The position numbers and the translations under genes were made by a program. DNA of 64,000 nt from Bilabrum cf. latius (taxonomy: Eukaryota), in the NCBI GenBank assembly GCA_965178125.1, contig OZ237769.1, positions 434,001 through 498,000 on the forward strand, written 5' to 3'. The first letter of the stretch is position 1. Each line of letters opens with the position of its first letter. Below are positions 11,445-56,457 of this stretch, one piece after another. Under the pieces are notes generated by a model. It was not told the DNA's origin and did no database searches. It was given only the letters and a program-made list of their open reading frames with translations.

Positions 11445-14199
11445 ATGTCAAGTGGCTCAGAACCAGCTCCCGTCAGCGTAGATGGAGGGACCATGTTCAC
11501 GCTGTTCGAGGCATTGTTCGGATCCAATCCTAATTTGGAAGATGCTAGGCGGTGAGGCTTTTGCAGGTATCGCAAGCTGGTCCAGATGAGACCACACTTT
11601 ATCATGTATTTGATCAAGCAGTACCGACTCTCGCAGCTGGTTTGATCAGGGCTTCTAGTTCAGCGACATTGAGGGCCGACGGTTCGTAATCCGATAGGCA
11701 CGCGGCGGGCCCTGTGGGATCATCGCGCCACTGCAGGCCATCTTGATAAAATATTTATTATTTGGCACAGCACGAACGCACAAAGAGGCCATCAAAGGAA
11801 TCGGGGCTCCCGTCGATGACGATGCACCAAGCCAGGCTGGCAGTTCGGCAGCGGGCTCGGCTGCCGCTGGCGGTGCGGCAGCCGCAGAGAGCCAAGGTAC
11901 TGGAGGCTCTTTGTCAGCGTCCTCTTCATCCATCACGACGGCGAAACCAACCGGGACGTCCGAAGCACCTCCTTCAGATCTGCTCCAGAAGCGGGCGAAA
12001 GACATCGGCATGGTGTCTGACTCGAAACGACACGCTGCCCTCATCGATGCGATCGCATTTGTTCTCTGGCAGGCCGCCCTGAGAGGAGGAGACCCGCTGG
12101 ATGAAGGCCTGGCGGGCAACGGGAAAGGAGGCAGCGCGCGGGCTCAGGTGGTGGCAATCCGCACCAGCCCGCCGGTGCCTCCGCCCCTCACGGCAGACGG
12201 CTTTTCCTCTTACGGTGGACTCATCCGCTTGGAATGCGGGTCCATGGCGGAGACGAGAGCTGCCGTGGATCGGCTTTGGAACAGGGATGTGCTCCAAGGC
12301 AGCAGCGGGGTCATCCTCCTGGTTCTCTCCCTGCTGCTGTCGAGGGGCGTGGATGGCCTCCAGGACGAAGACAGGACTGACAAGGGGGAGCCGCTCGTGC
12401 AGAGGTTCGGAAACTGCGGGCAGGAGCTTGTGAACCTGATGGTCACGGGGCGGGGCACATCGGAGGTGTTTGACGGGGAGAAAGACGTGGGGGGGGGCTT
12501 CATGATGAAGGGGATCATGAGCCAGCCGTACGTGGGATACCTCACCAGGCTAGAGTTTTTACGAGCCACAAAAGTGGGGTCTTACCTGAAGGAACCGAGG
12601 TTTCCAGCCTGGGTGGTGGGTAGCGAGTCGCACTTTAGCGTGCTGTTTTCGACCGACCCGAAGGCCTGCGCACCTGACCCGCAGTCGGCGGCCAAGCGCG
12701 TCTTTGACAAGCACGACGCATCCAGCGGCGGTTTCATCGCGCTGGAGGTGCTTCCTCAGGTGCTAGAGGAGCTCGAGCTCCCGATCGTCTCTTAGCCCGA
12801 GCAGATGAAGCTGCTCACGAAGTCCCTGGACCAGGGCATGGGCGTTGTTCCCTGGTCCACGTTCTGGAGCGTACTGTGCAAGTGGCTCCAGGAGGGAAGC
12901 GAGTCGGATGCAAAGCCAGTGGTGGTGGACGAGGCGGAGATAGAAGGCAAGGCCAGGGAGGCGTTCAACGAGGCGGACGCGATCGGGGGCGGGTTCATTC
13001 AGCCGGAGCAGGTGCCTGCTGTGCTGCGAGGGATGGGTGCCGGGGCCTACGCTGAGCTCCCGCCTACGGCTGCCGATAATCAGAGGGAGGAGCAGAGGAA
13101 GAGCAGGGAGGATCTGGAGCGCAAGGTGCGCGCCAAAGCGATGGATGGCATCATCTTCTTCGAGGCGCTGTGGGAGGTGGCCGGTCCCGTGGTGGTCGGT
13201 GACAAGGTCAAGGCAGCCGAGGCTGCAGAGGAGGCGAGAGCAAAGGCGGCCAGGGAAGCCCAGCGGCTAGAGAAGGAGAAGAAGGAGGAGGAGGCGGCCA
13301 TCCAGGCGAGTCTCGCCGAAGATGCCTGGGGGAAAGGGTCACAGACGCCCGCGGCAACTGTCGGAACCAGTGCGGCATCTTCGGCACCGGCGCCATCACC
13401 GTCACCCCATCAGGGCGCGTCTGCCTCCAGCAGCAGCTCCGGTGCCGGCGGGGATCTTGCTATTGACCCAGATTTGGTGCAGCGGCTGCAAGCAGCCATT
13501 ACTGGCGGTGCAATCCCTGGTGTGTCTGACATTGCACAGAAAGCCGAGGCCCAGGTGAAGAAGCAGCAGCTGGAAGCCGCCAAGGCCGGCAGCCTGCAGG
13601 TGGTGGTAGACGGGAAAGTGCTAGGCAGCAGTGGCGTGCCCGTAGAGAGCGGTGCGGGCTAGGCTGGATCGGGCAGGGAGGCAGACGGCCAGCCAGCCGA
13701 GAAGAAACGAAGGTAGGACGGTAGCCCCAGTGCAGCCGATGCGCCGGCACCGGCGCCAGCACCCGTTCCAGCACCGGCACCAGCACAAGTGCCCATGGAC
13801 GAAGATGCTCAGCTGGCCGCCGCACTGGCAGCCTCCATGGAGGCGCAGAGCGGCGCGGGCGGGGGCGAGGTGCCCCCGATGATGCGGGCGTCTAGCACGG
13901 ACAGCGTGCAGCGAGACATTGAGAGGGCACTGGGCAAGGCAAAGGTGGTCCGATCTGTGCCCCTGTGGCACGTGAATGGGCTAGAGACCGCAGACAGGAA
14001 GGCACAAGTGTATCCGCTGCTGGTGCAAGAGACAGACACGGGGGCATTTGCTCCAGAGGCTATGGAGGCGTCTGGGGCTGGCCACAGCCACGACAAGAGG
14101 AGGCTTCAGCAGAGGCAGAGTTTCGGGCAGGTTATCCGGACGAAGTGGGTGGGGGCGCAGATCAAGTTCCTTGAGGAGGGTGCGCCCAACATTGATTGA
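11445..14199 (+). CDS. MINDY3: MINDY-3/4 (FAM188, DUF4205) deubiquitinase with EF-hands and UIMs; exons 11445-11551, 11637-14199
   Basis: WFDQGF, [TAG]ARGGPCGIIAPLQA catalytic Cys motif, QELVNLMVTGRG, VGSYLKEP, WVVGSESHFSVLF catalytic His, LWHVNGL, IRTKW. TAG at 11656, 11695, 12793, 13660 and 13714. Ends TGA. Confidence 0.88.
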
Positions 14200-14385: not shown

Positions 14386-17300
14386 TCACACCACCATGTC
14401 CTCCACGTACTGCATGAACCGGTTGGCATACTCGCCCGGAGGCACGCAGCTGATCCCGTAACGGTTCCACTTGGTCACGGAGAAGAGGGCAGTCTCTGCG
14501 TGCTTCCTCATGTTGTACGCCTGCAGGATATCGATCACGCCCATGAAGTAGATCTCCTTGCCCAGCTCTCTCGTCGCGGGGTCGTAGCTCGGGATGGGGA
14601 AGTTGCTGCGGGGAGGCGCGTTGGCATCCGCTGGCGTGAACTCGGGCCTCTCGGGGAGATCAGAGCTGCCCGATGCCAAGCTCACGTTCGAGTCCGACAT
14701 CGTTTCATCCACCGAAGCGGAAGGATACATCCCACCGGCAGCAGCATCAGCAGCACCGCCGCCGCTAGTGGGGCGAGTCGCGCTGCCAGAAGAGGCCAGG
14801 GACCGCCTCCCAGACCCAGACAGCCTAGACTTGCGGGACTGGCCGTGCACGTGAGCGCGCGGGGTGGCAGAGTGCCTGCGACCCACAAGCCTGCTGCTGG
14901 CCTTCCGGGCAAAATTGCCGTTCCCGCGACCCAGCCCAGGCGCGGGCCTAGGGTCGCCCGCGCGGCCCGCCCTCCCGCCAGCGGCAGAGGCAGAGGCGGC
15001 CGCGCCCCAACTCGCTCCGTGCTCAGGTTCCACGACCTCGTCAAGCCCGCTCCCGCTCGGCACATGGCTGCCCCCAGACCTGTCCAAACCCGCACCGCCA
15101 CCGCTGCTCTTGTCCACAGGCCTGTATTCCTTATCCGGGTCCTAAATGCCCAGCAGTATGGAGTAGTCCATGATTCCCATTCTGGCCAGGAAATCCACGT
15201 CAACCCTGAGCTGCTGTAGGAGCTTGTTGCGCCGGTTGGCCCCAAGCCTCACTTTGACGCCCATTTCCAGCAGGTCGTTGTCCTTGTACACCACCCTGTC
15301 CCCGTACTTTTTCTTCTCTTTCTCCGTCGCGGCACGGCCCACGCTGGACCCCTTCAAATCGAACGTCTTGGTCATCACCGTGTCCCCGGAATCCGTGACA
15401 GAGTGCATGACCAGGAAGTACACAGACTTCTTCAGGTGAGGCATGTCCACCCGATGCATGCCGTAGAAGCGGCAGAGGAACGTCTCGGGGTTCTTCTGCG
15501 CGTGCACGTAGTAGTGCGGGAGGATGCGCCGCAGGAACTTGCTCTCCTCCTTGGTCATCGTCTTGATCATGAATCTCCCGTCGTGAGAAAAGAAGAAGAA
15601 TGACCCGCTCTTAGCGTTGCTGTTGAACTCGATGTAGTCGTACATGCCGCCCACGCAGGCAGCGTACTGCTGGTTGGCGATTCCGAAGCGCCTCCTGAGA
15701 TGGTGGAACACCTTGGGGGCGTAAGACTGCATGGAGGGGGGGGGGGGGAGGGGGGGGGGAAGACGAGAAGAGACGGGATGGGTTGGGTTTGGGGGCAGGT
15801 GGGAAGAAGCAATGTGCCATGGCAAGCAGCTGGCAACGTGGCAATGTAGCAGGCCGCACAGGCTTTCGAGCGCAGAACAACATCGCAACGAGCACTCCAG
15901 AGGTACACTCCTAGGCCATGTCAAACGGCCAGACTCACTCGGAATGAAAAAGGGTGCTTGATATCCAGCGGGGGCAGGTTCATGCTGGGATCTCCGTCCA
16001 CCTTGAAGAGCCGGACTTCTTTATCCTTGAAATCGTCCATGGAGGGACGAGGCTTGGTGGGCACAAACTGGGCAGTGGTCCATATGCCCAGCATCATGCC
16101 GTAGCTGAGTTGGTATTGCTTGTGCGTCGCCTTGATGCGCTTGCCGTGCACGGTGATGTCACCGGACGCACCAGAGTCCCGCAGCACCTCTTCGGGCACC
16201 TCTGCTGCTGCGTCCCTGGACGATGTGGGCTTGTCACGGAGGGCATGGTACAGCTCGCTGTTGGGCGCCACCGTGGGACGACGGGAACGGATGGGCTGGT
16301 AGCGCATGCTCTTGGCTGACTTGAGCCGGCCGGAGGGGGACTAAAATATGACGTCTTGGTCACCACCACCCCTAAGCTCTGGTGTCATGACCATTCCCGA
16401 GTCCGGGTCGATGGGCAAGGGGGAAGGGCCGGCCATGGGGCTGTCTTCATCGAGCCCACCTTCCCACACGGGAGTGGCAACCGCGCTGCTGCTGCCGCGC
16501 ATCATCCCAGCTCCGGATGATGCCCCTGCAGCGCCACCTCCTGCACCTATGCGCCCCCGAACCCCCAGGCCATGCTCCCGCACGTACCCAGCACCATCAC
16601 CATCGCCCCACCCTCGCCCACCCGCTCCTATTGCACCAGGACCTGATCTGCCCACCGGCCGTGCCTGGCTGCCCCCCCTTCCTCCACCAGAGACTTTATG
16701 AGCCACAGGCCCGTGGTGGCCGCCGTTCCCACCGGGCGTGCGGTGGCCTTGGCGCCCCTGCCCACTGGGTGTCCCCTGCCCCTGTCCCTGCCCCTGTCCC
16801 TGCCCCTGCCCCCTGGAGATCGGCGTGCCGCTGCCCGCACCGCGGGCTCCGGATCCACTCGTCCCATCGCGACCGCTGCGCCGCCCCGCCATGCGCATGC
16901 CCTTCTTGGCGGCCATGATGGGGCTCTGCGTGTACGAGGCGCCTGCTCGCGCGCCACCACTGCCCACCAGCCCGCCGCCCCAGCCGGTACCGGCTCCTGC
17001 CCCTGCCCTCGGGGCCGCGGATCGGGACCTGCCGTTGCTCGGTGCCATAGAGGGCGATGTCATCCCCCCACCGCGCTAGACCGGTCCCCCGCCCCTCCTG
17101 CCTGCCATGCGCATGCGCCCGCCGCTGGCAGGGGGGCGATCCGTGGCACCCTTTTGGGCACCCTTGCCAGAGGCACCGTTCGAGGCGACCACTGGTGAGT
17201 TTCCCCGAGTGCTCGGCGCCGAAGACACGTACCTGCTGGATGGCGCAGATGCTCGAATGCCAAGAGGAGAGCGCATGCTGATTCCTTCAGAAGGTGTGCC

Positions 17301-21317: not shown

Positions 21318-21549
21318 ATTCTGGCCTATCATATCGAGAGTAGGTTCCAAGTTGAACGAGTTTCGATTGATTTGTCCATAATATAGTCATTGGCTTCAAA
21401 GTGTACGTATGAACTCTATTTGCAAAGGGTTGATGCTGCTATTGCCAGTCTCATAAATTACTTCGCCACACTAAACGCCGCGCATTTCCTGGTTGCGGAA
21501 CATGTAGAGAACCGCCCTGAACTCTCGAATCAAGTATTTCTGTTTTACC

Positions 21550-23423
21550 ATGGCTGGAGCTGCCGGTAGTGGCGGTGATGATGATGAGAGGTATCTTAAG
21601 CTATTTAAACTCAAGAAGCTTTTGAACATGCTGGACAAAACGAAGGCGTAAGTTGTACAGGGTTGAACATCGTACGGACGCAACCTCGACCTTCTAGCTT
21701 TCGCGCTAGTTCGTCAAGTTGATGTAGTGTGGAAGTAACATAACTATATTATATAGTTACAAACTGAAGTTTGAGGAGCGTGGTGCTCTAGCCTTGGTAT
21801 TTAGGTTCTGGGCATCCCTTGAATACTCAAGCACAGCTTTCAATTTGTCAACGCAGGGACGGGACGAGCATGGTGTCCTTGATTTTGCCGCCTAAGTCCT
21901 AGGTAAGCGTCAAGTAATGTTATCAGTGTTCGGTGTCGGATGGAATCCCGAGTCTACCCGAGTTACCTTGGACCTTGCCGTTCCTCCCACGCAGATTCCA
22001 GCTGCTGGCAAGATGTTGCAAGATGAGTACGGCACTGCCGTCAACATTAAGTCTAGGGTCAATCGATAGTCTGTGCTAAGTGCCATCACCTCGACCCAGC
22101 AGAAGCTGAAGCAGTTCTCTAAATGTCCCGAGAACGGCCTCGTGCTCTACTGCGGTGAGGTCATCACCGAGGACGGCAAGCAGAAGAAGCTCATGCTGGA
22201 CATCGAGCCCCCGAAGCCGATCAACACCTCCCTGTATATGTGCGACTCCCATTTCCACACCGAGCCGCTGAGGGAGCTACTTCAGGAGGACGACAAGTTC
22301 GGATTCATCGTCATGGACGGAAACGGGACCCTATACGGCACCCTGCAGGGCAACACCAAGGTGGTGCTGCAGAAGATCGCAGTGTGAGCTATGAGGCATA
22401 TTTCTATGTTTCGATGCATGCCCCTGCCTACAGCACCTCGCCTCGCTTCTCCTCTGAGCGTGGCAGAGCGAAGCCGCAGCCCAACCAGCCCAACTAGCCC
22501 AACCCAACTCTCACTGCTGGCACTCCCCAGGTCACCGCACCAGCCAGCAAGGGCGGGCCCAGGGCAGCGAGCCTGTTCCGCAGACCACGCTCGTCCCATC
22601 CGATTGCCCCATCATTTCCATCGCACTCGTCACACGCAGCGACCTGCCCAAGAAGCACGGCAGGGGCGGGCAGTCCGCGCTCCGATTCGCCCGCCTGCGC
22701 CTGGAGAAGAGGCACAACTACGTGAGGAAAGTGGCGGAGCTGGCCGTGACGCACTTCATCACGGCAGACAGGCCCAACGTGAAGGGAATCGTGCTGGCGG
22801 GATCGGCCGAATTCAAGCTGCAGCTGCAGAGGAGCGACCTCCTGGACCCCCGCCTGGGGGATATCGTGCTCAAGCTGGTGGACGTGTCGTACGGGGGGGA
22901 GCTCGGATTCAACCAGGCCATTCAGCTTTCCGAAGAGACGCTGTCCAACGTCAAGTTCGTCAAGGAGAAGAAGCTGGTGAAGGCCTTCTTCGACGAGATC
23001 GCGACGGACAGCGGCAAGTACTGCTTCGGGCCCGCCGACACCATCTCGGCCCTGGAAATGTCTGCCATGGAGACGCTCATTGTGTGGGAGGACCTCCCTT
23101 TGATGCGCTACGAGCTGAAGGATTCAGCCACGGATTCCGTGACGGTGAAGCTGCTCAAGCCCGGCGACGAGAAGGACCCTGCCCACTTCAAGGACCCCGA
23201 GACGGGCGCTGACCTCGATACGGTCAACAGCGAGCCTTTCATCGACTGGATCACGGAGCATTACAAGGACTACGGTGCCAAGCTTGAGTTTATCACGGAC
23301 AAGAGCGAGGAGGGGTCCCAGTTCGTCAAGGGGTTCGGAGGCCTGGGTGGTCTGCTCCGATGGAAGGTCGACTTTGTGGAGATGGCAGAGCTCGACGAGG
23401 ATGATGATGACGATTTCATCTAA
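21550..23423 (+). CDS. ETF1: Eukaryotic peptide chain release factor 1; exons 21550-21647, 21857-21902, 21995-22383, 22640-23423
   Basis: [13 protein letters not shown][TAG][12 protein letters not shown][TAG][46 protein letters not shown]. Three frame-preserving GT..AG introns. Ends TAA. Confidence 0.97.
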
Positions 23424-23979
23424 GCAGGATAGGTGTTCATGTATGAGTTGACACGGAACGAATGATGTTTCACACGCAAGCAAGCGTTGCTCGTGTCACC
23501 GATCCCAACAGAAAATCAGTACAAGCCTTCGGCACTCTCCAGCTCGCTTTCTGGCGTTAATGACTCGGAATTACGTTAATTTGGGCTACATCAAAACTGT
23601 CGGGTCTATTGTAGCACAATATTTTCGCCAGAAAGTGCGCCAGGGCGGTTGCGACCGCCGCGGCTGGTGCTGCACGCGTGCGACCGCGCTGAGCAGGTCG
23701 AACGAATACCTTCTCCTTCGACAGTGCGACGTACAAACAGCTTACTGAGCCAGAATATCCAACGTTTTTCACTTGAACTAGGCTTTCAACATACAATTGG
23801 AGTTTCAACCAGCGAAAGTAGGTCGGATTACGAGCGATAGGCCACCCCAAAGCGCCAGAGCCATTCAGCGGCCGCAGTGGTGTTTGGTCCGCCTGAACGC
23901 AGTATAGTCGAGGCATTATCAGCTTTGCGCGACGTGTTTGTTGCATTCAATTTATAGGTGTGCTGTATATTGATCCAGG

Positions 23980-26900
23980 ATGAGCTCAAGAGACGCAGGG
24001 CTAGAAGCTTTCGCGAATGACGGGAGTGCAACCCATAACCTCAGCCATCCACACCGGGACTCTAGCAAGCATTAGCAGACCGGGACAGGAGAACATGGAG
24101 GACTCACTGGCCCGTAGCTCCCGCGAGCGACGCAGCCCACTGGAAAGCGCAGCACTGGGCGACCACGTCTCAGCGGTGCAGACTTCGCAGAGATTCGCAG
24201 CCGCCCAAGTCACACGGCAAGCCATGGCAAGTCTGGGCGCACAGATTCTACGGGGAAATCTTTGGACCGGAATCCGATCGGCAGGCCGACGTCACCAGGA
24301 GTTGATATAGCAGAGGCCAGGCGAGCGGTGCGGAGTTCCAACAGCAAGTTGGATGCAATATTAGCAGAGGCCGGTGACGCGGGCGGTGGAATGAGCCGGG
24401 CAGATTTGTTATTTGCAACTGCAACTGGTCGGTCTACCCATCATGGCAGCGGGTCTCATGCCGGACGCAAGCACCGCAAGTTTCGCAAGTCCATGCCTGG
24501 AGAGCTGCAGATTCCTGGCGCCGGCTCTGCTGGGATTCCGAGAGCCAAGCTAGGAAGCAACGGATCAAAGCGTAGTTCGGGAGCCACGGATGATGGCGCG
24601 GTAGATACAAGGGGTGGTGCACGGGGTAGCGAGCGGCGTGCGGGAGACAGCAGTGCATTGCCGCCACTGGCACTCGGTCCAGGTCCAGGCGCCGCGGCCC
24701 GGAGCTCGGCAGGCGCGAACGGCAAGGCCCCAAGGCAGGCAGGTGAGCAGGCAGGTGAACATGGGAGCTACGGGGGCAGTTAGCGGTCCCTCGATGGGCC
24801 GAGTTCAAACACGCTGGAAAACGCGGCGGGACTGGCGAACTTGACTGACCCCGCTGAGGACGACAGCCGAGGGGTGCACGGTGCGAGCAACTCGCCCGAG
24901 CAAGTGCTTCAGGGCGAGCAGAACGAGGAGGGGGGTTCCTTGGGCGACGACGAGGCTGATGCGGATGACAATGGCGACGAGGATGAGGATGAGGAAGAGG
25001 AGCACATTGATCCTGTTGAGTTCAAGGAGAGGATGGAGAGGGCCCGCGCCATGGCCATCATTCGGGGGGCGCAATCCAAGCGATCCATACTGGAGAAGCA
25101 GGTGCTGCAGGAAATGTCCCCGGCCGCGCGGAATAATCCAGGCAGCGGCAACTTTGATTTCTTTGGAGCGGCGGCTGCGGGCAGCCCCGTGGGTGGGAGG
25201 ATAAGGCACAGGAGGGCGAGCTGGAGCCAGCCAGCGCACAGCAGGCCATTCCTGCGGCCGTCCAGAGACAGCTCGCAGGACTCGAGGGAGAGAGAGCGGC
25301 TCTCCTCCCACACGAGCGAGATTCACGGCCTGCAAGCTCCCCCAGTCCCCAAAGAACAATCCAATGCTGGCGGAGAAGCCCCGCCAAAGCCGAGGCGACA
25401 CCGCCGCGCGTCGACTCAGATCACGACGGGCCTGAGACTAGGCGGCACTGACCGCTCTGACCTAGGCCCCGCCCCCAAAGCTGCCAAGCTAGGAGTGAAT
25501 AGGAAGCACAGGTCCCGCAGATAGTCCATGTCTGTCGTTGGCGTGCGCAGGAGGTCTCAGGCAGAGCGCAAGGCCAGGAGGAGGAGCCTGTCCATGTCGC
25601 AGAGGAGGCAGAGGAGAACCTCGAGAAAGCTAGCCACCAGTGCGGCGGTTGACGGAGGGGCGGAGGCGTTCCTGGATCCCAAGAGAGTGGACGCTGACGC
25701 GGAGAAGCACGTGATCGAGGCTGTTAGCATGCAGAGTAGAAGTCTCATCGACAGGCATGCAAAGCAGGAGGGTTCCGGGGAGCAGCCCGGGTGGAATCAG
25801 GCTCTGCTTGGTGCGCTTGCAGAGGCTGAAGACGGCTCTGATTCTGAGGATTGGGCAGAGATCGTGGAACCCAGAGATGGCGTCTATGGCGGCGGGGTGA
25901 ATCTGATGGGAGGCAGGAGCAAGTCGAGGAGGCACAACCATCATCATCATCATCACGGCGACGGTCCTGCAGCGGTCCCTGGAGCGGTCCGTGGAGCGGA
26001 GAGTGACAGCGACCAGTCGATGGGCACGGTGCGACAGCTAGATTCGGACGAGAGCGATGAGGAATTCCACTTGCCGTTCGAGGACGATGAGGACGAGGAG
26101 GATGACGATCTGCCCGAGGACGAGAACGAGGGCTGCGAGGCTTGGGTGCGCCAGTACGTGTGCTCGCCGCTGTGCTTCGGCTGCTGCTGGTGCAGGTCCA
26201 ACGTGTGCTACCAGATCTGCTGCTGCTTTCCGTGCTGCGAGCCGCCCGCCAGACAGGCCGCCGCCAACTCTGGATTGCTCGTGAACTCTATCACCAAGGC
26301 ATTCGCTGACTCGGAGGACGGGCCCTGTTCGTGCTGCCGCAGGTGCACGCAGGGGGACGAGGGCGACGACGATCTGAACGATTAGGGGGGGCTGTACCGA
26401 TAGGACAAGGAGAAGGAAGAGGAAGATAAGGCGGACATGCAGGCCCTCGCTGATGCAGCCCAGGCCCCGCTTGGCTTCAGGCCAGGCGTCACGACGTTCT
26501 TTCCAACGCACCCTGGCGCCTGCATCATCAACCCGAGGAACTCTGCCATGAAGCAGTGGGACCTCGTCATGATGGCGTGCCTGCTGTTCACGGCAGTGTT
26601 CACGCCATTTGAGGTAGCGTTCCTGCAGACCAGCCTCGACCCCCTCTTTGTGATCAACAGGTGAGGTCACGATACGGATCATCCCAGTTTGAGTACCTGC
26701 CGCGCTCGGCTTGCAACCTAATGACCGCAGTCCCCGCGACTGCTTGCGACTCTCATTTTCCATGAATTTTCCCATTGTTGCACCGCTTCGCTGCATCTCG
26801 CAGACTGGTAGATGCCTTGTTCGCATGCGACCTCATGATGCAGTTCTTTTTGGCCTACATGGATTCTGACGGGCAGTGGGTCGTGGAGCACGACCGCATC

Positions 26901-29900
26901 GCGGCCAGATACTCTGTGGGCTGGTTCTGGATCGACCTGATCTCCATCCTCCCGTTCGATACGATTGGCATAGTGCTGAACAATGATGAGATCAGCAGGC
27001 TGGCCATCCTCAGGGGGATCCGTCTGCTTCGGCTCTTCAAGCTCTTTAGGCTGGTGCGGGCCAGTCGGATCTTCAGCCGGTGGCAGGCCCACATGTCCTT
27101 CAGTTACTCGTGGGCAAAGCTGATGTACTTTGGAGTGGCGCTGGTGTTCGCAAGCCATTGGATGGCGTGTCTCTTCCGGCTTGTGGTTGATCTCGAGCAG
27201 TTCACCGATGAGTTCGGGCAGCCGACCAACTGGATCATCAACTACGACTTCCAGAGGCTCGTCACACCGGGCCAGCTGTACGTGACTGCGCTCTACTGGA
27301 GCATTGCCTCCTTGACCACGATTGGGTACGGTGATGTAGTGGCAAGCACGCCGGGCGAACGGCTGTGCGCCGTCATCGTGATGGTAATCGGAGCAAGCAT
27401 GTATGCGTACACAGTCGGTGTGGCCTCTTCGATCGTGTCCAACCTAGACGAGGCCACCAACCACTGGCAGCAGCAGATGGACGCCCTGAATCTCTACGGC
27501 AGCGACATGAAGCTCCCGCAGACACTCATGATCAAGCTGCGGAGATATTTCCAATACTCGAGACAGCTGCTGCGGCTGCGGCACTACCAGTCGCTGCTGC
27601 AGGCCATGTCTCCCAGTCTGCGGCGGGAAGTGGCCGTGCACACCAACAGGGTGTGGGTGCTCCGGGTGCCTTTTTTCTCGTGCAATGACGAGACTGAGAC
27701 GGAGGAGTTCATCACTGAGATCGCCCTGGCGCTAGAGCTGGAGGCATACGCTCCCGGGGAGCACATCATCCAGGTGGGCGAGAGCACAGAGAGGATGTTC
27801 ATCCTTCAAAAAGGGGTCGTCTCTCGACTTGGCAGGATCCTGTTCTCAGGCGCGTCGCTGGGGGAGGACATGATACTGCACGATGCAAAGCGGACCTACG
27901 CCGTCACCGCGCTGACCTACTGCAACTTGAGCTCGATCACCAAACGGGCCGTGGAGGGCATACTGGCGCAGGGAAGGTTCCCCAGGATGACACGCACCAT
28001 TCGGAGGCAGGCCATCCGCATGAGCCTGCTTCGCGAGTTCATGCACTACGCGAAGCTCCTCAAGATCGCAAAGCAGGTCGACCCCACGTACAGCATACGC
28101 AGCCTCGCGTACCTTCGGCTGCTGGATGCCGCAATTGGCGTGAGGTATGCAAGGATCCGTAAGATCATGCAGCGAGACCCCAACTACAAGCCACCGAACC
28201 GCGTGCCCACGTTCATGAACCTCGTGGGCAAGGCCTTCGAGGCTCACAAGAGCACCCGGTCCGTGGGGCCCGGCAGGAGAGACTCGATCGGCAGCGCGAA
28301 TGGCCAGACCCAGGAGTTCATGAAGATGCTCGCTGCATCGGATGGGTACGGGGATCACCCGGGTGATGACTCGCAGCAGCACTTGATTCCTGTGTCTCAA
28401 AGCATGGACAACAATAGCAGCGCATCTGGTAGGCAGCCACAGTCCGCTGGGCATACTGCTCAAGCAGGCACTGAGTCAAAGCAGCAGCACAGGCCACAGC
28501 CGCAGCCCAGTGCCCGCGTGTCGCCTATGCGACAGTTGAACCAGCCAGCCGACGACCAGTCGCCCCTCCTCGAGAGACATGGCAGCACGGACAGCACCAC
28601 GGCAGGCCGGCGGGCACCCCCCAAGCCCGCTCCACGGCCCCCTCCCCCTCGGCAGAGCGTCATCGCATCGGACGAGGGGGAGTCCAAGCCCAAGTCCATC
28701 CTGAGGACGGGTACACGGAGGAGCGTGGCGGGGCAGGGGCAGGGACAGGGACAAGGGCCCCGCCCGCCTCCACCTCCTGCTGCCATCAAACGGGCCCGCA
28801 GCTCCAAGGACTCATCAGGCACAGGCATTGGCACAGGCGTGGCTACTGGAAGTGGCCCTGCAGCAGAGGGCAAGGCGCAGGCCGCAAGGAATGTGTATGC
28901 TCCTCCACAGAGAGACAAATCGGTCAAATTCACGGCTGGGCGCGGCGACGATGACGGAGATGAGGAGGACGGGGGCGGCCCTCGCCCGCCCAAGCTGCAG
29001 AGGCCCAGACGAGGCAGCCGCAAGGCCAGCAATGGGTCCATGCTAGCCTCCATGCGCGGCTTCTACCGCTCCCAACGCAAGATCATGCTGCGGCATGGAG
29101 TGTCTGAAAAGGAGACGGCGGAGTTCATTTAGAAGCAACAGGAGGATGAGGAGAAGAGACGCTTTCTGAGCGTGATGCTGGGCGCAACGACCTACGAAAA
29201 ATCGGACGTGCTGTCCGAGGCCGCCCTGATCCTACCGGAGCAAGCAAAGCTGAAGCTCGCGAGGATTCTGGCTGCACTCGGCATCCGGCTGGGAATGCGG
29301 CTCGGTGGCATGTGCGGGGAACAGCAGGAGGATCTCCTGGCTGGGGACCCGCAGCTGAGGCACGACTGGCTCGTGATGGTGCACGCCCAGGAGCATGAAT
29401 AGCAGGCCGAAGACGAAGCCACCATGCGCAGGTTGCTCCTCACAGGGGGTGCGAATTCGCCCAGCCCCGTTGGCGCGGATGGGCCCGGTCCTGGGTTTGC
29501 CCCCGGTGCTGGAGGCAGGCCGCAAGCAGGCTACCATCCCACTGGCATATTCGATGTGAACGGCTCTGCTGATACCGAGCAAAAGCATCATGGCGGGGAT
29601 TCCACAGGATACGGCAAAGGTGGGTTCGTTGGCATGCAGATGCACGGGCAGGGCACTAGTGGCGGGCCTAGCCAGGGAGCACCAGCCCTCATGCATGCTG
29701 CCAGGGGGCCAACGGAGCTGGCCGGCGAGGGTGCGTATGGTCCTCGGTCTGATCCGCTGGACAATGGGAATGGGAAGGAGGCAGCGGGCAGCAGTCTTCT
29801 AGAGGAGTGGAAGCACGGGCAGCTGGGGCGCCGCCCCAAGGGTGGAGGTGGCACCGGTCAAAGTGGCGGGAACAGTGGGCAAATTCGAGCAACCGGTGAG

Positions 29901-32162
29901 TCGAAGCGCGAGACCGCGCAGCTGCTGGGCCCGAAGCGCGCCATCCGACTAGGCAAGAGCAACCGGCAGCTCTTGCTGCAGGGTATGGATGGAAGCACCA
30001 GCGACTCGGGCGTGGAAGCTGGGAGCAGCAAGCAAAGTGACGACGGAAGGCGCACGCCGGTAGGATCTGCTGCCCAGACGCAGATCGTATCTGGCAGTAT
30101 AGCCACTTCGGGAGTGCACACGTCGCAGTCGGCGCACCTGACTCCGCTCATGGCGGGCCGCAGCCGTGCCGGCTCATTCGCTGGGCGCGCTCAGGTGCCT
30201 CTCTCCCTGGAGTCGCCTGCAGCAGCAGCAAGGCGGGGCGCAAACGAGCAATTCGGTCACATGGCAGGCAGGGCAGGCGGTGCAGCTGCCATATCGACCC
30301 GTAATCTTGGGTTGGATCTGCCCAGCAGTCCCTTAGAGCCCGATAAGCAGGGTCGCCAGCTGGGGCCGGGCAGCCCCAGCAAGCAGGTGAGCGCTGGCAG
30401 CAGTGGGCCGGGTACGCCCTCCGGGGGCACACCTGCCGGCCGCTCCCTTGTGCCGCCTGGTGCAGACAGGAGCCTGAAAAAGAAGGCCCCATTGTCTATG
30501 TCGCACCTCAAGCTGGCCCTTGATTCGGTGAGTCAGGAGGTCACTGAGTCCTCCCACCACAGCCAGCAAACGCACAAGGGTGCATTCACCCAGAGAGGTG
30601 AGGTCAGCAGGGCGATGCAAGAGTCTCTGGGCAGCGAGGTGGACAACAACGACGGTGCCACGAAGGCCCACCAGGCCAGGCGCAAGCGGTTGGGCCGCCG
30701 CTCCATGTCTGCTGAGGACAAGAGCATGAAACTGGCCAAGGCAGCCATCGAGGCGACCAGAGAGGAGCAAGCTGCTGCTGGCCTCGCGCCCACCTTCGGG
30801 GTACCGATGGGCCAGCGCACGCTCGCTGGGCTGCTGGCCGTGCCCCCCTCCCGCCGGGTTGTGGGCTCGCAGCCGCTCCCTGGGCAGCTGGGCTCACCCC
30901 TGCTCGGTAGCAGCAGCAACCAGCAGGCGATCGGCGTCGAGGACGACAACTCCACGGGATCAGGCCGTGCAGGCCTGCACCGCGGGGCGTCCTGGCTGCA
31001 ACCGCCGCAGCAGACCTCGCTGGCCGAGGCATCGCGGGCCGCCGTGCGCGGTGGCAGGCTGGGCAAGAGGGTGGTGCTGCGGCCCTCGCTCCGCACAGCG
31101 ATGGGCGGGGCAAACGCGCGCACATCGCTGGCCAATAGCGTGACGGGGATGGGCGGGACATACCCGGGACCCATGGCCAGCGGATCAGGCACGGGTGCCA
31201 GCCCTGCCTCAGCCAGGGTCGGGCCAGAATTCACGACTCTCCTGTAGCAGCAGCAGGCGCAGACTGGCAGGCAGTAGGCCCAGATGATGGACTTGCTGCA
31301 AGCGCTCAGCCACCAGGTCGGCAGTCTATCACACCAGGTGCACAAGCTCTCCTCGCGCAACGAGCAGCTTGAATCCAGGCTCGTCAGGCACGGCTCGCTG
31401 TCGGTGTCCACTGTGTCCAAGGCAGGGACGGGTCGCAACGGAGTAGGGAACAAGGGCAACTTGTCTGGCAGGTCATCTGCCTCGCGAGTGCCAACTGGGC
31501 CTGCGATGGCAAGCATGGAGGAGCCGAGGTACACCTCGATGGATGCGCCGGGGCCTGGGGCTGGTCATGGGGAGGCAATGGGCGGGGTCCTAGTGCCGGT
31601 GGGTGCAGCGAGCAACAGCCAGTCTCGATCTGGCGGCGGTGCGGTAGCAGCCGCCGCCGTCGGTGGGGCGGGAGCCAGGAACCGAGAAGGCAGCAACCCG
31701 TACGATCTAGACTACGTGCGGCAGGAAATGCAGACTCGCACGGAGCGCAAATAGCAGGCAGGTATGGGCATGTCGCGGAAGTGGCAGGACAGCGAGGAAC
31801 TGCTTACAGCAGATGACGCCAGGGACAAGTCAATCGCCACCATTGCAAAGGAGAGGCAGATTCGACGGGCAGCCTCCCGGCGGAGATCATCGGCACAGCA
31901 GCAGGCTGCGCATGCCAGGGGGGCATCGTCGTCCTCAAAATCATCGGAGGATGGAGTGGTCACGGTGCTGGACGATGATCTAATGGCGCAAACTGCGCTC
32001 GGTGGCTTTGGCGGGCGGATCGCCTGGGCGATGAGCTGTGTACTGATCCTGATGTTGGTGGTGCTCGTGCTGTAGCTCATCTCGCTGGCGGGCATGGCCG
32101 GCGGGTACTTCGAACACGAATGCCCGCCCGAGGCCGAGGCTGCAGGAGGTGGGCAGACGTAA
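23980..32162 (+). CDS. Cyclic-nucleotide-binding-domain (EAG/KCNH/HCN-like) voltage-gated K+ channel, about 2680 aa; exons 23980-26660, 26804-32162
   Basis: IINPRN...WDL (S1), WFWIDLISILPFD, S4 RGIRLLRLFKLFRLVR, pore TTIGYGD, C-linker and CNBD. Long low-complexity N- and C-termini. About 12 in-frame TAG. Ends TAA. Confidence 0.85.
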
Positions 32163-36408: not shown

Positions 36409-39400
36409 TCATCCAAAGCGGCACCGCACTCTGCGCCCCGTGGCAGCATGGGAGTCCTCTGCGGCGTGCAAGGAAGCCCTCATCAACCCGTCCAGATCCA
36501 CAGTCTGTTGGCCACCGCCGATGTCTTGGTCCTCTTTCACTGGGGGCAGTTCCTCCACGACATCGCCCACGCTGACCCTGCCTCCCAGTGCTGCAACCCC
36601 CGCCCAGACGTCGTCGTCGTCCTCCTCCCCTACCATGGCAGCGGCAGGAGTATGCACCACAGTGCTCCTTCCATCCTGACCCCCGGCACCAAATGCACTG
36701 GTTCTGCCTCGCTTCCTGCCTAACGCGGGACTGAAAGCTGACATACAGCGCACTGTGCTGTCCAGAAGAGCGCGCTCATCAGTAGCGCCCGCGCCAGGAG
36801 CAGCCGGCATGGCACCACCCGTTGTAGCGGTTGCTCCCTCTTCCTCTGCCTCTTCCTCTTCCTCCCAAAAGGGGGACTGTCTCTACATGGTTCGGCTCGC
36901 AGCCTCCTAGCTCTCGAGGGCATGCAGGTTGCGCACGTTGACGGAGTCGTAGGCGTGGTTCGGGAGATCCGATTCCTGCCTTCGCGATTTAGGCAAGGGC
37001 TCGTTGATTTCCGCTGCCGGGCTGAGCCTGGCAGCTCCGTCCTCGCCCTGCCCCCCTGCGGCTCGGTTGGTTGTAGCCTACTCGATCGCCTAAAGCTCAG
37101 CCATGGCCCATGCAGCCTCCGTGTAACGGTATTCAGCCTTGTCGTTGGTCTATTCCTCCTGCGAACCCCCCTCATCATCCCTCACACGCCAATTGCCGAG
37201 CCTAGCGGCTGGCCTATGCTGGCTGGGTCCGCCAAGGCTGCCTTCTTGCAGGGCGCAATGCCCACTAGCGATAGCCTTTCTGACTCGGGCCGAGGACGAT
37301 GAGGACGGTGAGGAATGTGGTGCCAAGGCCTGCGAGAGCAGAGGCATGCCAACGGTGTCGCGGTGGTCGGCCAGCTGCTGGAGGGGGAGCACCACCTCCC
37401 CCAATCCAGGTTGGACGATGCCGCCTCCAGCGCCCCGCGTGCAGAATGCACTGCTAGAGGCCCCGCTGCGGCTGAGTCCCACAGCAGAGTCAACACCGGT
37501 GGGTATCGTGGCAGAGTCAACACCGGTGGACCTCATGGAGGACGAGGAGGATGAGGAGGACGAGGAGGACGACAGCACGACCCAGGGCGACGATGATGGA
37601 GACGAAGATGATGACGGCGGCCTTTGACACACTCGCTAGAATGGCGGCATCAAAGCGTGCAAGAACACCGACTTGCCAAGCCCGTTGGCCCCCACGATGG
37701 CAGAGCCAGGCCCGGTGGCCCCCATGACAGAGCCAGGCCCGGTGGCCCCCATGACAGAGCCAGGCCCGGTGGCCCCCATGACAAAGCCAGGCCCGGTGGC
37801 CCCCATGACAGAGCCAGGCCCGGTGGCCCCCATGACAGAGCCAGGCCCGGTGGCCCCCATGATGACAGAGCCAGGCCCGGTGGCCCCCATGATGACAGAG
37901 CCAGGCCCGGTGGCCCCCATGACAGAGCTAGGCCCGATGGCCCCCATGACAGAGCCAGGCCCGGTGGCCCCCATGGCAGAGCCAGGCCCGGTGGCCCCCA
38001 TGATGGCAGAGCCAGGCCCGGTGGCCCCCATGGCAGAGCCAGGCCCGGTGGCCCCCATGATGGCAGAGCCAGGCCCGGTGGCCCCCATGATGGCAGAGCC
38101 AGGCCCGGTGGCCCCCATGACAGAGCTAGGCCCGGTGGCCCCCATGATGACAGAGCCAGGCCCGGTGGCCCCCATGACAGAGCCAGGCCCGGTGGCCCCC
38201 ATGACAGAGCCAGGCCCGGTGGCCCCCATGACAGAGCCAGGCCCGGTGGCCCCCATGACAAAGCCAGGCCCGGTGGCCCCCATGACAGAGCCAGGCCCGG
38301 TGGCCCCCATGACAGAGCCAGGCCCGGTGGCCCCCATGACAGAGCCAGGCCCGGTGGCCCCCATGACAGAGCCAGGCCCGGTGGCCCCCATGACAAAGCC
38401 AGGCCCGGTGGCCCCCATGGCAGAGCCAGGCCCGGTGGCCCCCATGACAGAGCCAGGCCCGGTGGCCCCCATGACAGAGCCAGGCCCGGTGGCCCCCATG
38501 GCAGAGCCAGGCCCGGTGGCCCCCATGACAGAGCCAGGCCCGGTGCCCCCCATGACAGAGCCAGGCCCGGTGGCCCCCATGGCAGAGCCAGGCCCGGTGG
38601 CCCCCATGGCAGAGCCAGGCCCGGTGGCCCCCATGACAAAGCCAGGCCCGGTGGCCCCCATGACAGAGCCAGGCCCGGTGGCCCCCATGGCAGAGCCAGG
38701 CCCGGTGGCCCCCATGATGACAGAGCCAGGCCCGGTGGCCCCCATGACAGAGCTAGGCCCGATGGCCCCCATGACAGAGCCAGGCCCGGTGGCCCCCATG
38801 ACAGAGCCAGGCCCGGTGGCCCCCATGACAGAGCCAGGCCCGGTGGCCCCCATGACAGAGCCAGGCCCGGTGGTCCCCATGACAGAGCCAGGCCCGATGG
38901 CCCCCATGATGACAGAGCCAGGCCCGATGGCCCCCATGACAGAGCCAGGCCCGGTGGCCCCCATGACAGAGCTAGGCCCGATGGCCCCCACGATGGCAGA
39001 GCCAGGCCCGGTGGCCCCCATGACAGAGCCAGGCCCGGTGGCCCCCATGACAGAGCCAGGCCCGGTGGCCCCCATGGCAGAGCCAGGCCCGGTGGCCCCC
39101 ATGACAGAGCCAGGCCCGGTGGCCCCCATGACAGAGCCAGGCCCGGTGCCCCCCATGATGGCAGAGCCAGGCCCGGTGGCCCCCATGACAGAGCCAGGCC
39201 CGGTGCCCCCCATGATGGCAGAGCCAGGCCCGGTGGCCCCCATGACAGAGCTAGGCCCGGTGGCCCCCATGACAGAGCCAGGCCCGGTGGCCCCCATGAC
39301 AGAGCCAGGCCCGGTGGCCCCCATGACAGAGCCAGGCCCGGTGGCCCCCATGACAGAGCCAGGCCCGGTGGCCCCCATGACAGAGCCAGGCCCGGTGGCC

Positions 39401-40526
39401 CCCATGACAGAGCCAGGCCCGGTGGCCCCCATGACAGAGCCAGGCCCGGTGGCCCCCATGACAGAGCCAGGCCCGGTGGCCCCCATGACAGAGCCAGGCC
39501 CGGTGGCCCCCATGGCAGAGCCAGGCCCGGTGGCCCCCATGGCAGAGCCAGGCCCGGTGGCCCCCATGACAGAGCCAGGCCCGGTGGCCCCCATGACAAA
39601 GCCAGGCCCGGTGGCCCCCATGACAGAGCCAGGCCCGGTGGCCCCCATGACAGAGCCAGGCCCGGTGGCCCCCATGACAAAGCCAGGCCCGGTGGCCCCC
39701 ATGACAGAGCCAGGCCCGGTGGCCCCCATGACAGAGCCAGGCCCGGTGGCCCTCATGGCAGGTGCAGTAGCGGTAATTGAAGCAGCGGGAACCGAAGCAG
39801 AGCCAGTAGCAGCAGATGAGGATCCAGGTGCAGGTGAGTGTGGTGCAGCCAAAGAAGACCATGCAGATGGTGAAGTCGCTGAGGACTAGCGGCTCGCTCG
39901 CAATTGGATGGGGCGGTTGGCCAGCTCCTTAAAATACCTATAAAATGCTTGCTTGGTCTGGTCTCCCTTGTTGCGGTCGTTCCTGATTTGCTCCATCAGC
40001 GATGCTCGGGCCTATTCCGAGTTGGCGATTTCCAGCAGGAAGCCCGACAGGTGCGGTGGTAGCGAGGACAGAAGCTTGCCAGTCTAGACCATCTAACGAA
40101 GCTTCTCGGAAATTGTGTTTTGCCCCATCTGTAAGTTCAGTAATTTGTTGTCGTTTTTGTACTGCTCGGCCGCCTTCTTCTTCAGCGTGTGGAATAGTGA
40201 ACCTGTGTGTCGAGAAGCTGGCTTGTTGACTCTGGCAATATAGACAGACCGCGCTTGCTCTTGTCCAAAATTACCGTCAAGAACCATTTCATTGATAATC
40301 ACGGCTGACGTAATGCTTCGCAGGTATGTTACATCTTTGTATAAGGTCGCCCGCAACTTGTTAGTGGCAAGCCGCACGTACAGCTGCGTCGCGGCTCTCT
40401 GCTGCTCGGGTGCTGCCCTATACTGCAATGATTCGGACAATGCACTCGCAATACTACCAATCGAAACAAGTTAGATCTCAACCTGACCCTAGTTCAGCTG
40501 CTGTGAGTATTACTTGTCCTCACCAT
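36409..40526 (-). CDS. Hypothetical protein containing about 75 copies of a 9-aa repeat (MGATGPGSV); probable ATG micro-exon 40524-40526 and main exon 40422-36409
   Basis: ORFs 40093, 37636, 37150 and 36409 share one frame and are separated only by TAG. No TAA or TGA for 4 kb. Ends TGA. The ATG|GTGAGG..TTGCAG intron is inferred. Confidence 0.6.
37683..39757. repeat. 27-bp tandem minisatellite, unit ATGACAGAGCCAGGCCCGGTGGCCCCC, about 75 copies
   Basis: Directly visible. Variants are point changes and +3-nt (ATG) insertions only. Confidence 0.97.
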
Positions 40527-43578: not shown

Positions 43579-43862
43579 ATCGAATCGCTCCGCGGTACAG
43601 CAAGGCTTGCTCGATATCTCTTACGAAATTTTGCTACGGAACCAAACTGATGGACAGCTTTCGATATATGCAGGCGAAAATCTGCCACGTTGCAACAAAG
43701 TCGCTCCTATGAGATGCACAATTAGTGCTGTTGCAGTCCGTCGGGGCACTGTTCGGATTCCGGTTGTAACCTCGGCATTGTAATATTGTAACGTTAGAAA
43801 AACGATTATTTAAGAGAAATAGGGGCCCATCGCGAGAAGGTCAAACGTCGATTCTGATAGCT

Positions 43863-49185: not shown

Positions 49186-50963
49186 ATGTCTTTGAGAGCC
49201 TAGGTATTTAATGGTGTTAAGATTTATGACCTGCAGTCGTAGGCAAAGCTGCCCGAGTTCATATCGGAGCGGCAGAGGAGAAAGCTACTAGCCTCTGATG
49301 AGAATCTTCGCCGGCGAATTGAGCTCGTGCAGGACTTTAAATTCAATACAGCGTCTCACTGTGTTACATTCACGGACGATGGCCAGTACATTGTTGCCGC
49401 TGGCTCGTACCCTCCCCAAGTGAAAGTGTACGACACCGAAGACCTAGCTCTGAAATTTGAGAGACATGTCGATTCGGATATCATTGAGACTATCCCACTG
49501 GAGGACTCGTGGAGAAAGCTTGCATTGCTGCAAGACGACCGATTCCTGGAGTTGCATGCTGCACATGGCCGGCACCTTCGAACGCGTATTCCGAAGCAAG
49601 GTCGGGCCATGGTGTTCAACCGCAGCAGCGCCGAACTGATCGTTGGAAGCTCTTCTAGCGACATTTACAGGCTCTCTCTGCAGTCCGGCCGGTTTATGAA
49701 GCCGTTGGAATCCGAGTCAGAAGCCGTGAACACGCTCGCGTTCTGCCAGCGCACGCAGATCCTGCTGGCAGGCGGGGAGGACGGCGGCCTGGAGGTCTGG
49801 GACAGCAGGAGCAAGAAAGTCGCGGGCCGAATCCAGGTCAGGCCGGATGGTGGGGACGGTTCCGACGGTGAGTTCGATGGCAGTCTTGTAGGCGGTGTGG
49901 CCGAGGCAGCCGGCAAGGGCATCACCGCGCTGGAATGGGCTCCTGATTGCGTTACGTTCGCCACTGGCGACAGCGACGGCCGCGCCCTGGTGTTCGATCT
50001 CAGGTCCACCAAACCGCTCCTGTCCAAGTCGATGCCGGTAAGAAAATTGGAGAATTCTGGCAGTGCCCGATGCCATCATTTTGTTGCCGCCCACCTGTAG
50101 TTTGCGCATACACTGACTTGTTCTTCGCAGAACGGCACACCTGTGAAGAAGCTTCGTTTTCATAGCGACAGGAAACTGTTCGTTGCAGACAGCCATGCGA
50201 TCAAGATTGTCAATAGTAGTACGGTAAGAACAGCAGCCACCCGGCGGAAGCCCAGCTGGAATTTGAAACATCTTACTTTGTGAAGGTGTATGTTATCATG
50301 CATCGAATGGCTACCTTGCCTTCGCAGGGAAAGCACTATACAACCTTCGAAGCCAAGGCTCCGATCAATGACTTAAAATTAGTCAAGGGGTCAGATGGGC
50401 GCGACACAGGCCTAGTTATTGTGGCTGGAGGCCAGCCAGACATGATGACGTACTACATCCCAGAGCTTGGAGCTGCTCCAAAGTGGTGTGGATACGTGGA
50501 CTCTTTGACGGAAGAGCTGGAAGAAGGCCAAGAATCAACAGAAGTGTTTGATGATTATAAGTTCATATCGAAAGAGGATATTGAGAAGCTTGGACTCAGT
50601 AGTTTGGTTGGCTCTCCTGTGCTTCGAGCCTACATGCATGGCTATTTCATTGACTCTAGGTTGTACAAGAAGGTGGCTGCAGCGCTTCCCAGTGAGGCGG
50701 TTAGCAGCAGCAGTACTGTGAGCGAAGACATTGTTGGACGGAAGCGCAAGAAGCGACCCAAACAAAGTAGTTCAAGCGCCAGGCCATCTTCAACCCCATC
50801 CTCTGGAGCTGGTGAATCTTTTGATAGTAGATTTATGGCGGTAGACCCGGCATTTGATATCGATGAAACAGAGGCAGAAACCTTTCATGTGTCTCGCGGA
50901 AGCACGAAGTCAGACGCGAAGAGGAAGACAAAAGCGTTGACGAAGAGGAGAAGACTTGATTGA
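49186..50963 (+). CDS. NOL10: Nucleolar protein 10 / Enp2; exons 49186-50037, 50131-50223, 50328-50963
   Basis: NGVKIYDL...LPEF...RRRIELVQDF, GSYPPQVKVYD, LKFERHVD, YYIPELGAAPKWC...LTEELEE, FDDYKFI, LRAYMHGYFID. TAG at 49201 and 49240. Ends TGA. Confidence 0.93.
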
Positions 50964-56171: not shown

Positions 56172-56457
56172 ACCACTGTCGTGATATGTCTCAGATGCGA
56201 GAAACAAAGCAAAATCTATACGGAATACTGCTTCGTCCAAGAAACTCAAAAAATCATCATATTGAATGTAACGTACAGTTTCGAACTGGATTTCGGCGTC
56301 CGACCGCAGTGGCAGAGCACCTGCTTATCACTCCATTCTATCTACTATAAAGCGAATATTAAAGCAAGGCTACGCAATTACGGTATATTAACTTCGTATT
56401 TATTGAAGTACCCGTGAAAATATCTGATACTTCCGAGAAATAAGGCCTGCAGAGGCG

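Follow-up and report, generated by a model that had tools for sequence, protein, structure and literature searches.

An eRF1 gene with in-frame TAG codons and an altered N domain in a eukaryote with UAG as a glutamine codon: a candidate UAA/UGA-specific release factor

Organization and expression of the eRF1 gene

The window analyzed here, a 64,000-nt stretch of Bilabrum cf. latius DNA (contig OZ237769.1, positions 434,001 to 498,000 of the forward strand; coordinates below are those of the window), carried on its + strand, at 21550-23423, a gene for the release factor eRF1, which contained two in-frame TAG codons and encoded a protein with unusual residues around the stop-recognition motifs of the N-terminal (N) domain. 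The gene consisted of four exons (1314 nt, 438 codons) separated by three introns, all GT..AG, and the product possessed the three-domain architecture of eRF1, since Pfam eRF1_1, eRF1_2, and eRF1_3 were all matched; the best PDB match was yeast eRF1 4crn_X (E=2.8e-58). Residues are named in human numbering, in which window codon n is human residue n-4 (PDB alignment to 1dt9_A). Homolog counts refer to 198 near full-length eRF1 homologs from two database searches, 182 of which were complete, and exon joints to contigs from four public sequencing runs (three studies) aligned on 21400-23600. The features of the gene were as follows.

21550-21647, + strand: exon 1, with the start ATG and the first helix (21589-21645); its last two bases are the first two of codon 33 (Ala, human G29); joint 21647->21857 in X8 and X9 contigs
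21646-21647 plus 21857-21869, + strand: ADGTS, codons 33-37
21857-21902, + strand: exon 2, finishing ADGTS, with an in-frame TAG as final codon; joint 21900->21993 (equally 21902->21995 as GT..AG) in X7, X8, and X9 contigs
21900-21902, + strand: in-frame TAG, codon 48 (human Q44); Q in 190/198 homologs
21903-21994, + strand: intron 2
21995-22383, + strand: exon 3, with the remaining N domain (TAVNIKS, the 107-117 hairpin, and YMCDSHF) and the start of the middle (M) domain; Pfam eRF1_1, E=7.2e-20
22034-22054, + strand: TAVNIKS (human 58-64; S60V)
22067-22069, + strand: in-frame TAG, codon 73 (human L69, a P1-pocket residue); L in 188/198 and Q in 8/198 homologs
22235-22255, + strand: YMCDSHF (human 125-131; L126M, N129S, K130H)
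22640-23420, + strand, then TAA at 23421-23423: exon 4, with the M and C-terminal (C) domains; Pfam eRF1_2, E=1.7e-33, and eRF1_3, E=5.5e-31
22665-22673, + strand: GGQ (within HGRGGQ), M domain
22923-22925, + strand: CAG (Gln, codon 273), where the eRF1 of metagenome contig L001 has TAG

The three altered motifs, ADGTS, TAVNIKS, and YMCDSHF, had been named by a sequence-only reading of this stretch and were all located in the gene model. The divergent first helix described together with them was also present when its residues were set against 85 homologs, but it lay in exon 1, outside the span 21857-22260 to which it had been assigned and which also takes in intron 2. The M domain, which had been called near-canonical, was indeed ordinary: GGQ was present and the mean identity to 185 homologs was 0.729, compared with 0.645-0.810 for eleven comparison sequences. 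The TAG codons at positions 48 and 73 and the changed residue 69 were absent from that reading.

Contigs of runs X8 (1372 nt) and X9 (1362 nt), from two studies, joined all four exons at the borders of the model with no other letter; introns 2 and 3 were confirmed by X7, and an unspliced stretch was seen in one X1 contig. The RNA type of runs X7 to X9 is a guess only, no run being recorded as RNA for the window sequence, and their spliced contigs are most simply transcripts. In X7, a minor joint, 22383->22531, used an alternative 3′ splice site of intron 3 (depth 9.5 versus 488.7 for the main joint); since it keeps 109 nt of the intron and shifts the frame, it probably represents mis-splicing or an unproductive isoform. 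Over the 235 codons of exon 4 compared with L001, the ratio of nonsynonymous to synonymous substitution rates (dN/dS) was 0.025, indicating strong purifying selection. Judged from these sequence data, the gene is expressed and functional, with release activity predicted for its product.

These data also bear on the possibility that the TAGs are sequencing errors, or belong to a dead gene or to an mRNA that is edited, for which no support was found. There was no differing letter on 21400-23600 across contigs of the four runs, and both TAGs were unchanged in spliced contigs of three runs, which, having no other letters, show that the UAGs are not removed by editing. Together with the low dN/dS and with TAGs in relatives at other Gln positions, this leaves an artefact or a pseudogene with a negligible probability.

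Genetic code of the organism

The window supported a nuclear code in which UAG encodes Gln and UAA and UGA are stops, that is, the pattern of NCBI table 15. With the standard code, only 1 open reading frame (ORF) of at least 800 amino acids (aa) was present, whereas treating TAG as sense yielded 15; the same treatment of TAA yielded 1 and that of TGA 6, the last number being expected when the commonest stop triplet is dropped in DNA of 60% GC. Reading both TAG and TAA as sense gave 16 such ORFs versus 15 for TAG alone, and TAA occurred only at ORF edges although CAA made up a fair share of Gln codons (20 CAA versus 89 CAG in a channel ORF, for example); within this single 64-kb window, TAA is thus not a sense codon. 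The table 6 pattern, with TAA also read as sense, was ruled out by the near-null gain in ORFs and by the confinement of TAA to ORF edges.

TAG made up 41 of 9264 codons (~0.4%) in twelve ORF segments, of which ten had Pfam matches of their own and two were eRF1 exons. A Gln codon (CAR) stood beside 10 of the 41 TAGs (24%); the corresponding share was 8.1% over all codons and 16.6% around Gln codons themselves (p = 0.0013), and Gln was the top residue class among the neighbors. Outside eRF1, a TAG stood at an invariant Gln in a gene for a MINDY-3/4 deubiquitinase.

11614-14196: MINDY-3/4 deubiquitinase gene; Pfam MINDY-3_4_CD, E=8.2e-54
11695-11697, + strand: in-frame TAG, codon 28 of this gene, six residues before GGPCG; Q in 120/120 homologs

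Leucine as the meaning of TAG, hinted at by eRF1 codon 73, was ruled out by Gln at eRF1 codon 48 and at the MINDY site, and by Gln at position 69 in the nearest full-length relative, P0008; Gln was also found at position 69 in 43 of 134 diverse cluster representatives. The premise of the sequence-only reading, UAG as sense with UAA and UGA as stops, was therefore upheld by ORF lengths, the MINDY Gln site, L001, and the neighbors of TAG. Several observations weigh against assigning UAG to Gln. The TAG at MINDY codon 15 aligned to R in 118 of 120 homologs, and that at codon 394 to E in 73, D in 32, and Q in 6 of the 120; the single TAG of a PIP5K ORF (ORF 14389-16020; TAG at 15142-15144, - strand, residue 293) stood at a His of human PIP4K2B (...MDYS.L.GIH D...); and in the 64-kb window no tRNA gene was found by ARAGORN, nor any by Rfam at the gathering threshold.

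The window eRF1 had no TGA in frame. TGA terminated 10 of the 12 ORFs checked, including those ending BOP1, PIP5K, and MINDY, while at the conserved C-termini of eRF1 the stop was TAA in the window and in the related locus L002, and TGA in L001 and L003 (see below); the L001 ORF ended with TGA at the same C-terminal residue as the window TAA. TAA or TGA was thus found at all conserved C-termini checked (four eRF1s, BOP1, PIP5K, and MINDY), a small sample. This argues against a context-dependent code, in which UAG would be both sense and stop and eRF1 would still read it near mRNA 3′ ends. Such codes occur in some ciliates (PMC4967479), and a terminal TAG was undetectable by construction because the ORFs were defined by reading through TAG; for this organism, a code of that type is considered very unlikely.

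Other features of the window included TAGs inside poly-Gln runs of an RRM-domain protein (53736-56324, - strand) and of a cyclic-nucleotide-binding ion channel (26766-32159, + strand), in the latter within the C-terminal tail; a BOP1 gene (40816-43620, - strand) with no TAG in 935 codons; and an ORF of 1353 aa, with TAG as Gln, at 36412-40470 (- strand), which consisted mostly of a tandem 9-10-residue unit (GATGPGSVM and variants), lay in a stretch of 71% GC, had no Pfam match, and carried 10 in-frame TAGs in its flanks. A scaffold gap of 200 N (59020-59219) fell within a long TAG-containing ORF, and a low-GC island (50001-52000; 43% versus ~60% elsewhere) followed the NOL10 gene.

Substitutions in the N domain

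GTS, NIKS, and Y..C...F were all retained in the window eRF1, with changes at the flanking and x positions. Six substitutions, G29A, N30D, I35V, E107Q, F117P, and K130H, were found in 0/198 homologs and S60V in 1/198, whereas L126M (25/198) and N129S (14/198) were shared with oomycete and yeast sequences as well as with P0008 and L002. The proposal of the sequence-only reading that these substitutions may let eRF1 reject UAG is weakened for L126M and N129S by the refuting condition set there, occurrence of the residues in relatives with a standard code; G29A, N30D, K130H, and S60V remain lineage-specific candidates in these alignments.

Against the consensus of the three motifs in the present alignment (GNGTS, TASNIKS, and YLCDNKF), the window eRF1 deviated at 6 of 19 positions, whereas the maximum among the 182 complete homologs was 4 (132 had no difference, 36 had 1, 3 had 2, 8 had 3, and 3 had 4). 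A deviation at six of 19 positions is, by this comparison, more than chance. Of the eleven residues that Blanchet et al. (PMC4381064) list for the P1 pocket, four were changed (N30D, L69Q, T99E, and E107Q), a number equaled among the 182 only by P0008, the others having at most two.

Among the best 150 cluster representatives drawn from 1.84 billion proteins, V60 occurred in 2/130 and H130 in 2/150, both V60 sequences being without H130, and the representative closest to exon 3 was 73% identical. Single features of the window were seen in four divergent eRF1s, 49-54% identical to exon 3: P0452 had ...CGSHF and Q107, P0448 and P0486 had TAVN[IV]KS, and P0464 had H130.

To compare rates, private changes were counted at sites where four relatives agree. 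In the N domain, the window eRF1 had 13 at 83 sites (I12L, E13K, S23M, A27T, R28K, G29A, I35V, S60V, R81K, I112L, F114I, F117P, and L126M) versus 8 at 148 for Cafeteria plus Bicosoecida sp. (odds ratio 3.25, p = 0.015); in the M and C domains (M+C), the numbers were 15/160 versus 30/320 (odds ratio 1.0). These counts suggest that the N domain of the window lineage was moderately accelerated. At position 130, R was present in L002, L003, and P0008 and H in the window; as read from these sequences, N129S and the basic-to-other change at 130 are older than the split of the lineages.

Relatives and a second eRF1 with in-frame TAGs

L001 shared 82% nucleotide and 92% protein identity with the window eRF1 over the 235 codons, and in eRF1 trees the two grouped with P0002 (100/100). 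The window fell in a 12-row group with Cafeteria, Bicosoecida sp., and other sequences (SH-aLRT, a Shimodaira-Hasegawa-like approximate likelihood ratio test, 98), inside a wider stramenopile set, with a weak sister relation to Cafeteria (87/44) in this single-gene tree. The eRF1 tree thus places the window lineage probably near bicosoecids (stramenopiles); since the best named MINDY matches were streptophytes, this placement is probable rather than established. A green-algal origin, at which the MINDY matches hint, was without support in the eRF1 trees.

Among 80 loci compared, L003 (2-1310), a cDNA-like metagenome contig, was the one other locus with sense-like in-frame TAGs. It had two, both aligned to Gln of L002, and its ORF reached the C-terminus of L002, ending with TGA versus TAA in L002. 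Identity between the two proteins was 85% in M+C and fell to 66% in the N domain, and the private changes of L003 numbered 22/83 in the N domain versus 2/160 in M+C (p = 1e-9). Its motifs were GTGTS, TASQIKSHANRNA, and YWCDSRF, with NIKS changed to QIKS and with R65H, V66A, L69N, S70A, and L126W. L002 and P0008 possessed the canonical TASNIKS and no in-frame TAG in eRF1.

L003 grouped with L002 (97/89) and P0008 (100/100), apart from the window, and a tree uniting the TAG-bearing sequences was rejected by the approximately unbiased (AU) test (difference in log-likelihood 62.1, p = 5.4e-5), the group tested having been named after the tree was seen. This rejection, together with the separate grouping of L003, makes two UAG reassignments within one clade likely, as far as these trees go. 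Alternatively, L002 and P0008 may also read TAG as sense and happen to carry none in eRF1. Convergence between the window lineage and L003 was not shown, as the 5 changed sites that they share were no more than expected by chance (P = 0.23).

Recognition of stop codons by the window eRF1

UAG being a routine sense codon (~0.4%) that occurs twice in the mRNA of eRF1 itself, it can be strongly inferred that this eRF1 no longer terminates efficiently at UAG and still acts on UAA and UGA; efficient termination at UAG would truncate the protein at codon 48. The gene thus probably encodes an expressed, functional eRF1 of a eukaryote with UAG as Gln and with UAA and UGA as stops, in which efficiency at UAG was lost through combined changes of the N domain. 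T32 (window T36), E55, Y125, S33, and S70 were kept, in agreement with the retention of the GTS Thr noted from the sequence alone, while positions 69, 99, 107, 129, and 130 were changed.

The changed positions are among those with known effects. Positions 55, 125, and 129 affect release at UAG and are linked to the G at its third base, and K130 hydrogen-bonds with D128, thereby shaping the YxCxxxF loop (PMC3632111); L69A raised readthrough most at UAG, and T99A and E107A alter termination efficiency (PMC4381064); and a screen for suppression of UAG enriched yeast N126S, the counterpart of human N129S (PMC12440015). S33 and S70 have been linked to UGA decoding (PMC3632111, PMC4381064, and PMC3025575), and their retention fits with UGA remaining a stop.

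In the proposed mechanism, several changes together would reshape the pocket that reads the third base. The candidates are Q69; S129 and H130 in the YxCxxxF loop; V60 beside NIKS; A29 and D30 ahead of the GTS loop; and, on the hairpin that bears K109, Q107 to P117. Since T32, E55, and Y125 were kept, the loss of UAG would not come from one contact residue. A tRNA-Gln reading UAG, for example one with anticodon CUA, would have to exist elsewhere in the genome.

A number of points tell against this mechanism. The residues tied most directly by experiment to UAG reading, again T32, E55, and Y125 (PMC3632111), are the unchanged ones; N30A left readthrough in yeast unaffected (PMC4381064); and Swart et al. 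(PMC4967479) saw no individual substitution that follows the code variants. L126M and N129S are not lineage-specific, and Q69 occurred in 8/198 homologs and also in the solved eRF1 chain 8ip8_bl; all three changes were seen in homologs that give no hint of a variant code. Within the window protein, the excess of private changes in the N domain over M+C (13/83 versus 15/160) was not significant (p = 0.20), the sites shared with L003 did not exceed chance, and comparisons with L001, which begins inside exon 4, and with P0002, a 259-aa M+C fragment, cover exon 4 or M+C.

Some of these points would also be expected if the N-domain changes were a consequence of the new code rather than its cause, that is, if an abundant suppressor tRNA-Gln had captured UAG, constraint on the N domain had been relaxed, and the substitutions were neutral drift or compensation, with weak recognition of UAG possibly persisting. 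The lack of any single substitution tracking variant codes and the retention of the three contact residues agree with such a course, as do the different residues changed, without significant overlap, in the two TAG-reading lineages, and the presence in L003 of S70A, which has been linked to loss of UGA decoding in vitro (PMC3025575), although its ORF still ends with TGA; rules leading from motif to specificity are therefore unreliable. However, the changes in the window eRF1 cluster at positions 69, 99, 107, 129, and 130, shown by mutagenesis to alter termination, and the free use of UAG, twice early in the eRF1 mRNA, makes residual termination costly; moreover, the extreme and N-only acceleration in L003 (22/83 versus 2/160) resembles adaptive remodelling more than mild relaxation. 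A purely consequential origin of the changes is thus regarded as rather unlikely, and loss of UAG recognition through combined N-domain changes is preferred.

Extended to both lineages, this preferred reading becomes more tentative: it is possible, although somewhat doubtful, that heterotrophic stramenopiles near bicosoecids reassigned UAG to Gln on two or more occasions, once in the window lineage and once in L003, and that the N domain was rebuilt differently each time with T32, E55, and Y125 kept, giving natural UAA/UGA-only factors.

Comparison with known systems

Reassignments of UAG only are rare; those listed in PMC11687900 are confined to Iotanema spirale and the ciliates Protocruzia, Hartmannula, and Trochilia (all Gln), the rhizarian exLh (Leu), and the green alga Scotinosphaera (Ser). 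In the fornicate I. spirale, as in the window, UAG alone encodes Gln, UAA is a stop, and the eRF1 N domain carries a change in a conserved element for stop recognition (Panek et al. 2017, PMC5304391). The two lineages are unrelated, however, and the I. spirale eRF1 has T32G in GTS, whereas the window eRF1 keeps T32 and GTS and has its changes at 29/30, 60, 69, 107-117, and 126-130; the Iotanema-type solution, in which the GTS Thr is lost, was thus not seen in the window. The eRF1 of exLh resembles that of the window in having mostly preserved motifs and a change at position 69, but the change is L69A and UAG encodes Leu, whereas in the window position 69 is Gln, itself encoded by UAG (PMC5304391).

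The ciliates Hartmannula sinica, Trochilia petrani, and Protocruzia tuzeti use the table 15 code and belong to a group in which it arose independently more than once in close relatives (McGowan et al. 2024, PMC11687900), much as it apparently did in the window clade and L003. They differ in having mostly UAA stops, whereas TGA ended 10 of 12 ORFs in the window; no mention of eRF1 was found in that paper. That N-domain substitutions can narrow the set of stops was shown with chimeras for the restricted ciliate eRF1s (PMC3025575 and PMC12440015), but these drop UGA (Euplotes, UAR-only via S70A) or UAA plus UAG (Stylonychia and Paramecium, UGA-only). Engineered eRF1s for amber suppression, human E55D and yeast N126S among them, aim at weaker termination at UAG, and yeast N126S corresponds to N129S of the window; E55, however, is unchanged in the window, and the engineered effects (PMC12440015) are modest and not known to abolish UAG reading.

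No natural UAA/UGA-only factor with biochemical characterization was found in the literature searched, nor any characterized release factor from an organism with a UAG-only reassignment. Likewise, no report of nuclear UAG reassignment in stramenopiles or bicosoecids, or of the window eRF1, was found in the full-text literature, a coverage without most subscription journals; the sequencing runs date from 2025. The kind of system, a variant-code eRF1 with a table 15 code, is known, whereas the lineage and the pattern of substitutions appear to be new.

Implications

How one protein can accept UAA, UAG, and UGA yet reject UGG, or separate UAG from UAA, is an unresolved question, and a factor specific for UAA and UGA has to distinguish a third-base A from G only after A at the second position. 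The gene described here is a natural candidate for such an eRF1, with the GTS threonine kept. If its blindness to UAG is true, it would provide a short, testable list of residues (29/30, 60, 69, 107-117, and 126-130), and the pair L003 and L002, 85% identical in M+C and 66% in the N domain, would pinpoint residues that distinguish G from A at the third base; a factor of this kind would also be of use in expanding the genetic code of eukaryotic cells at the amber codon. The organism would likewise extend the known range of code changes by a new eukaryotic lineage.

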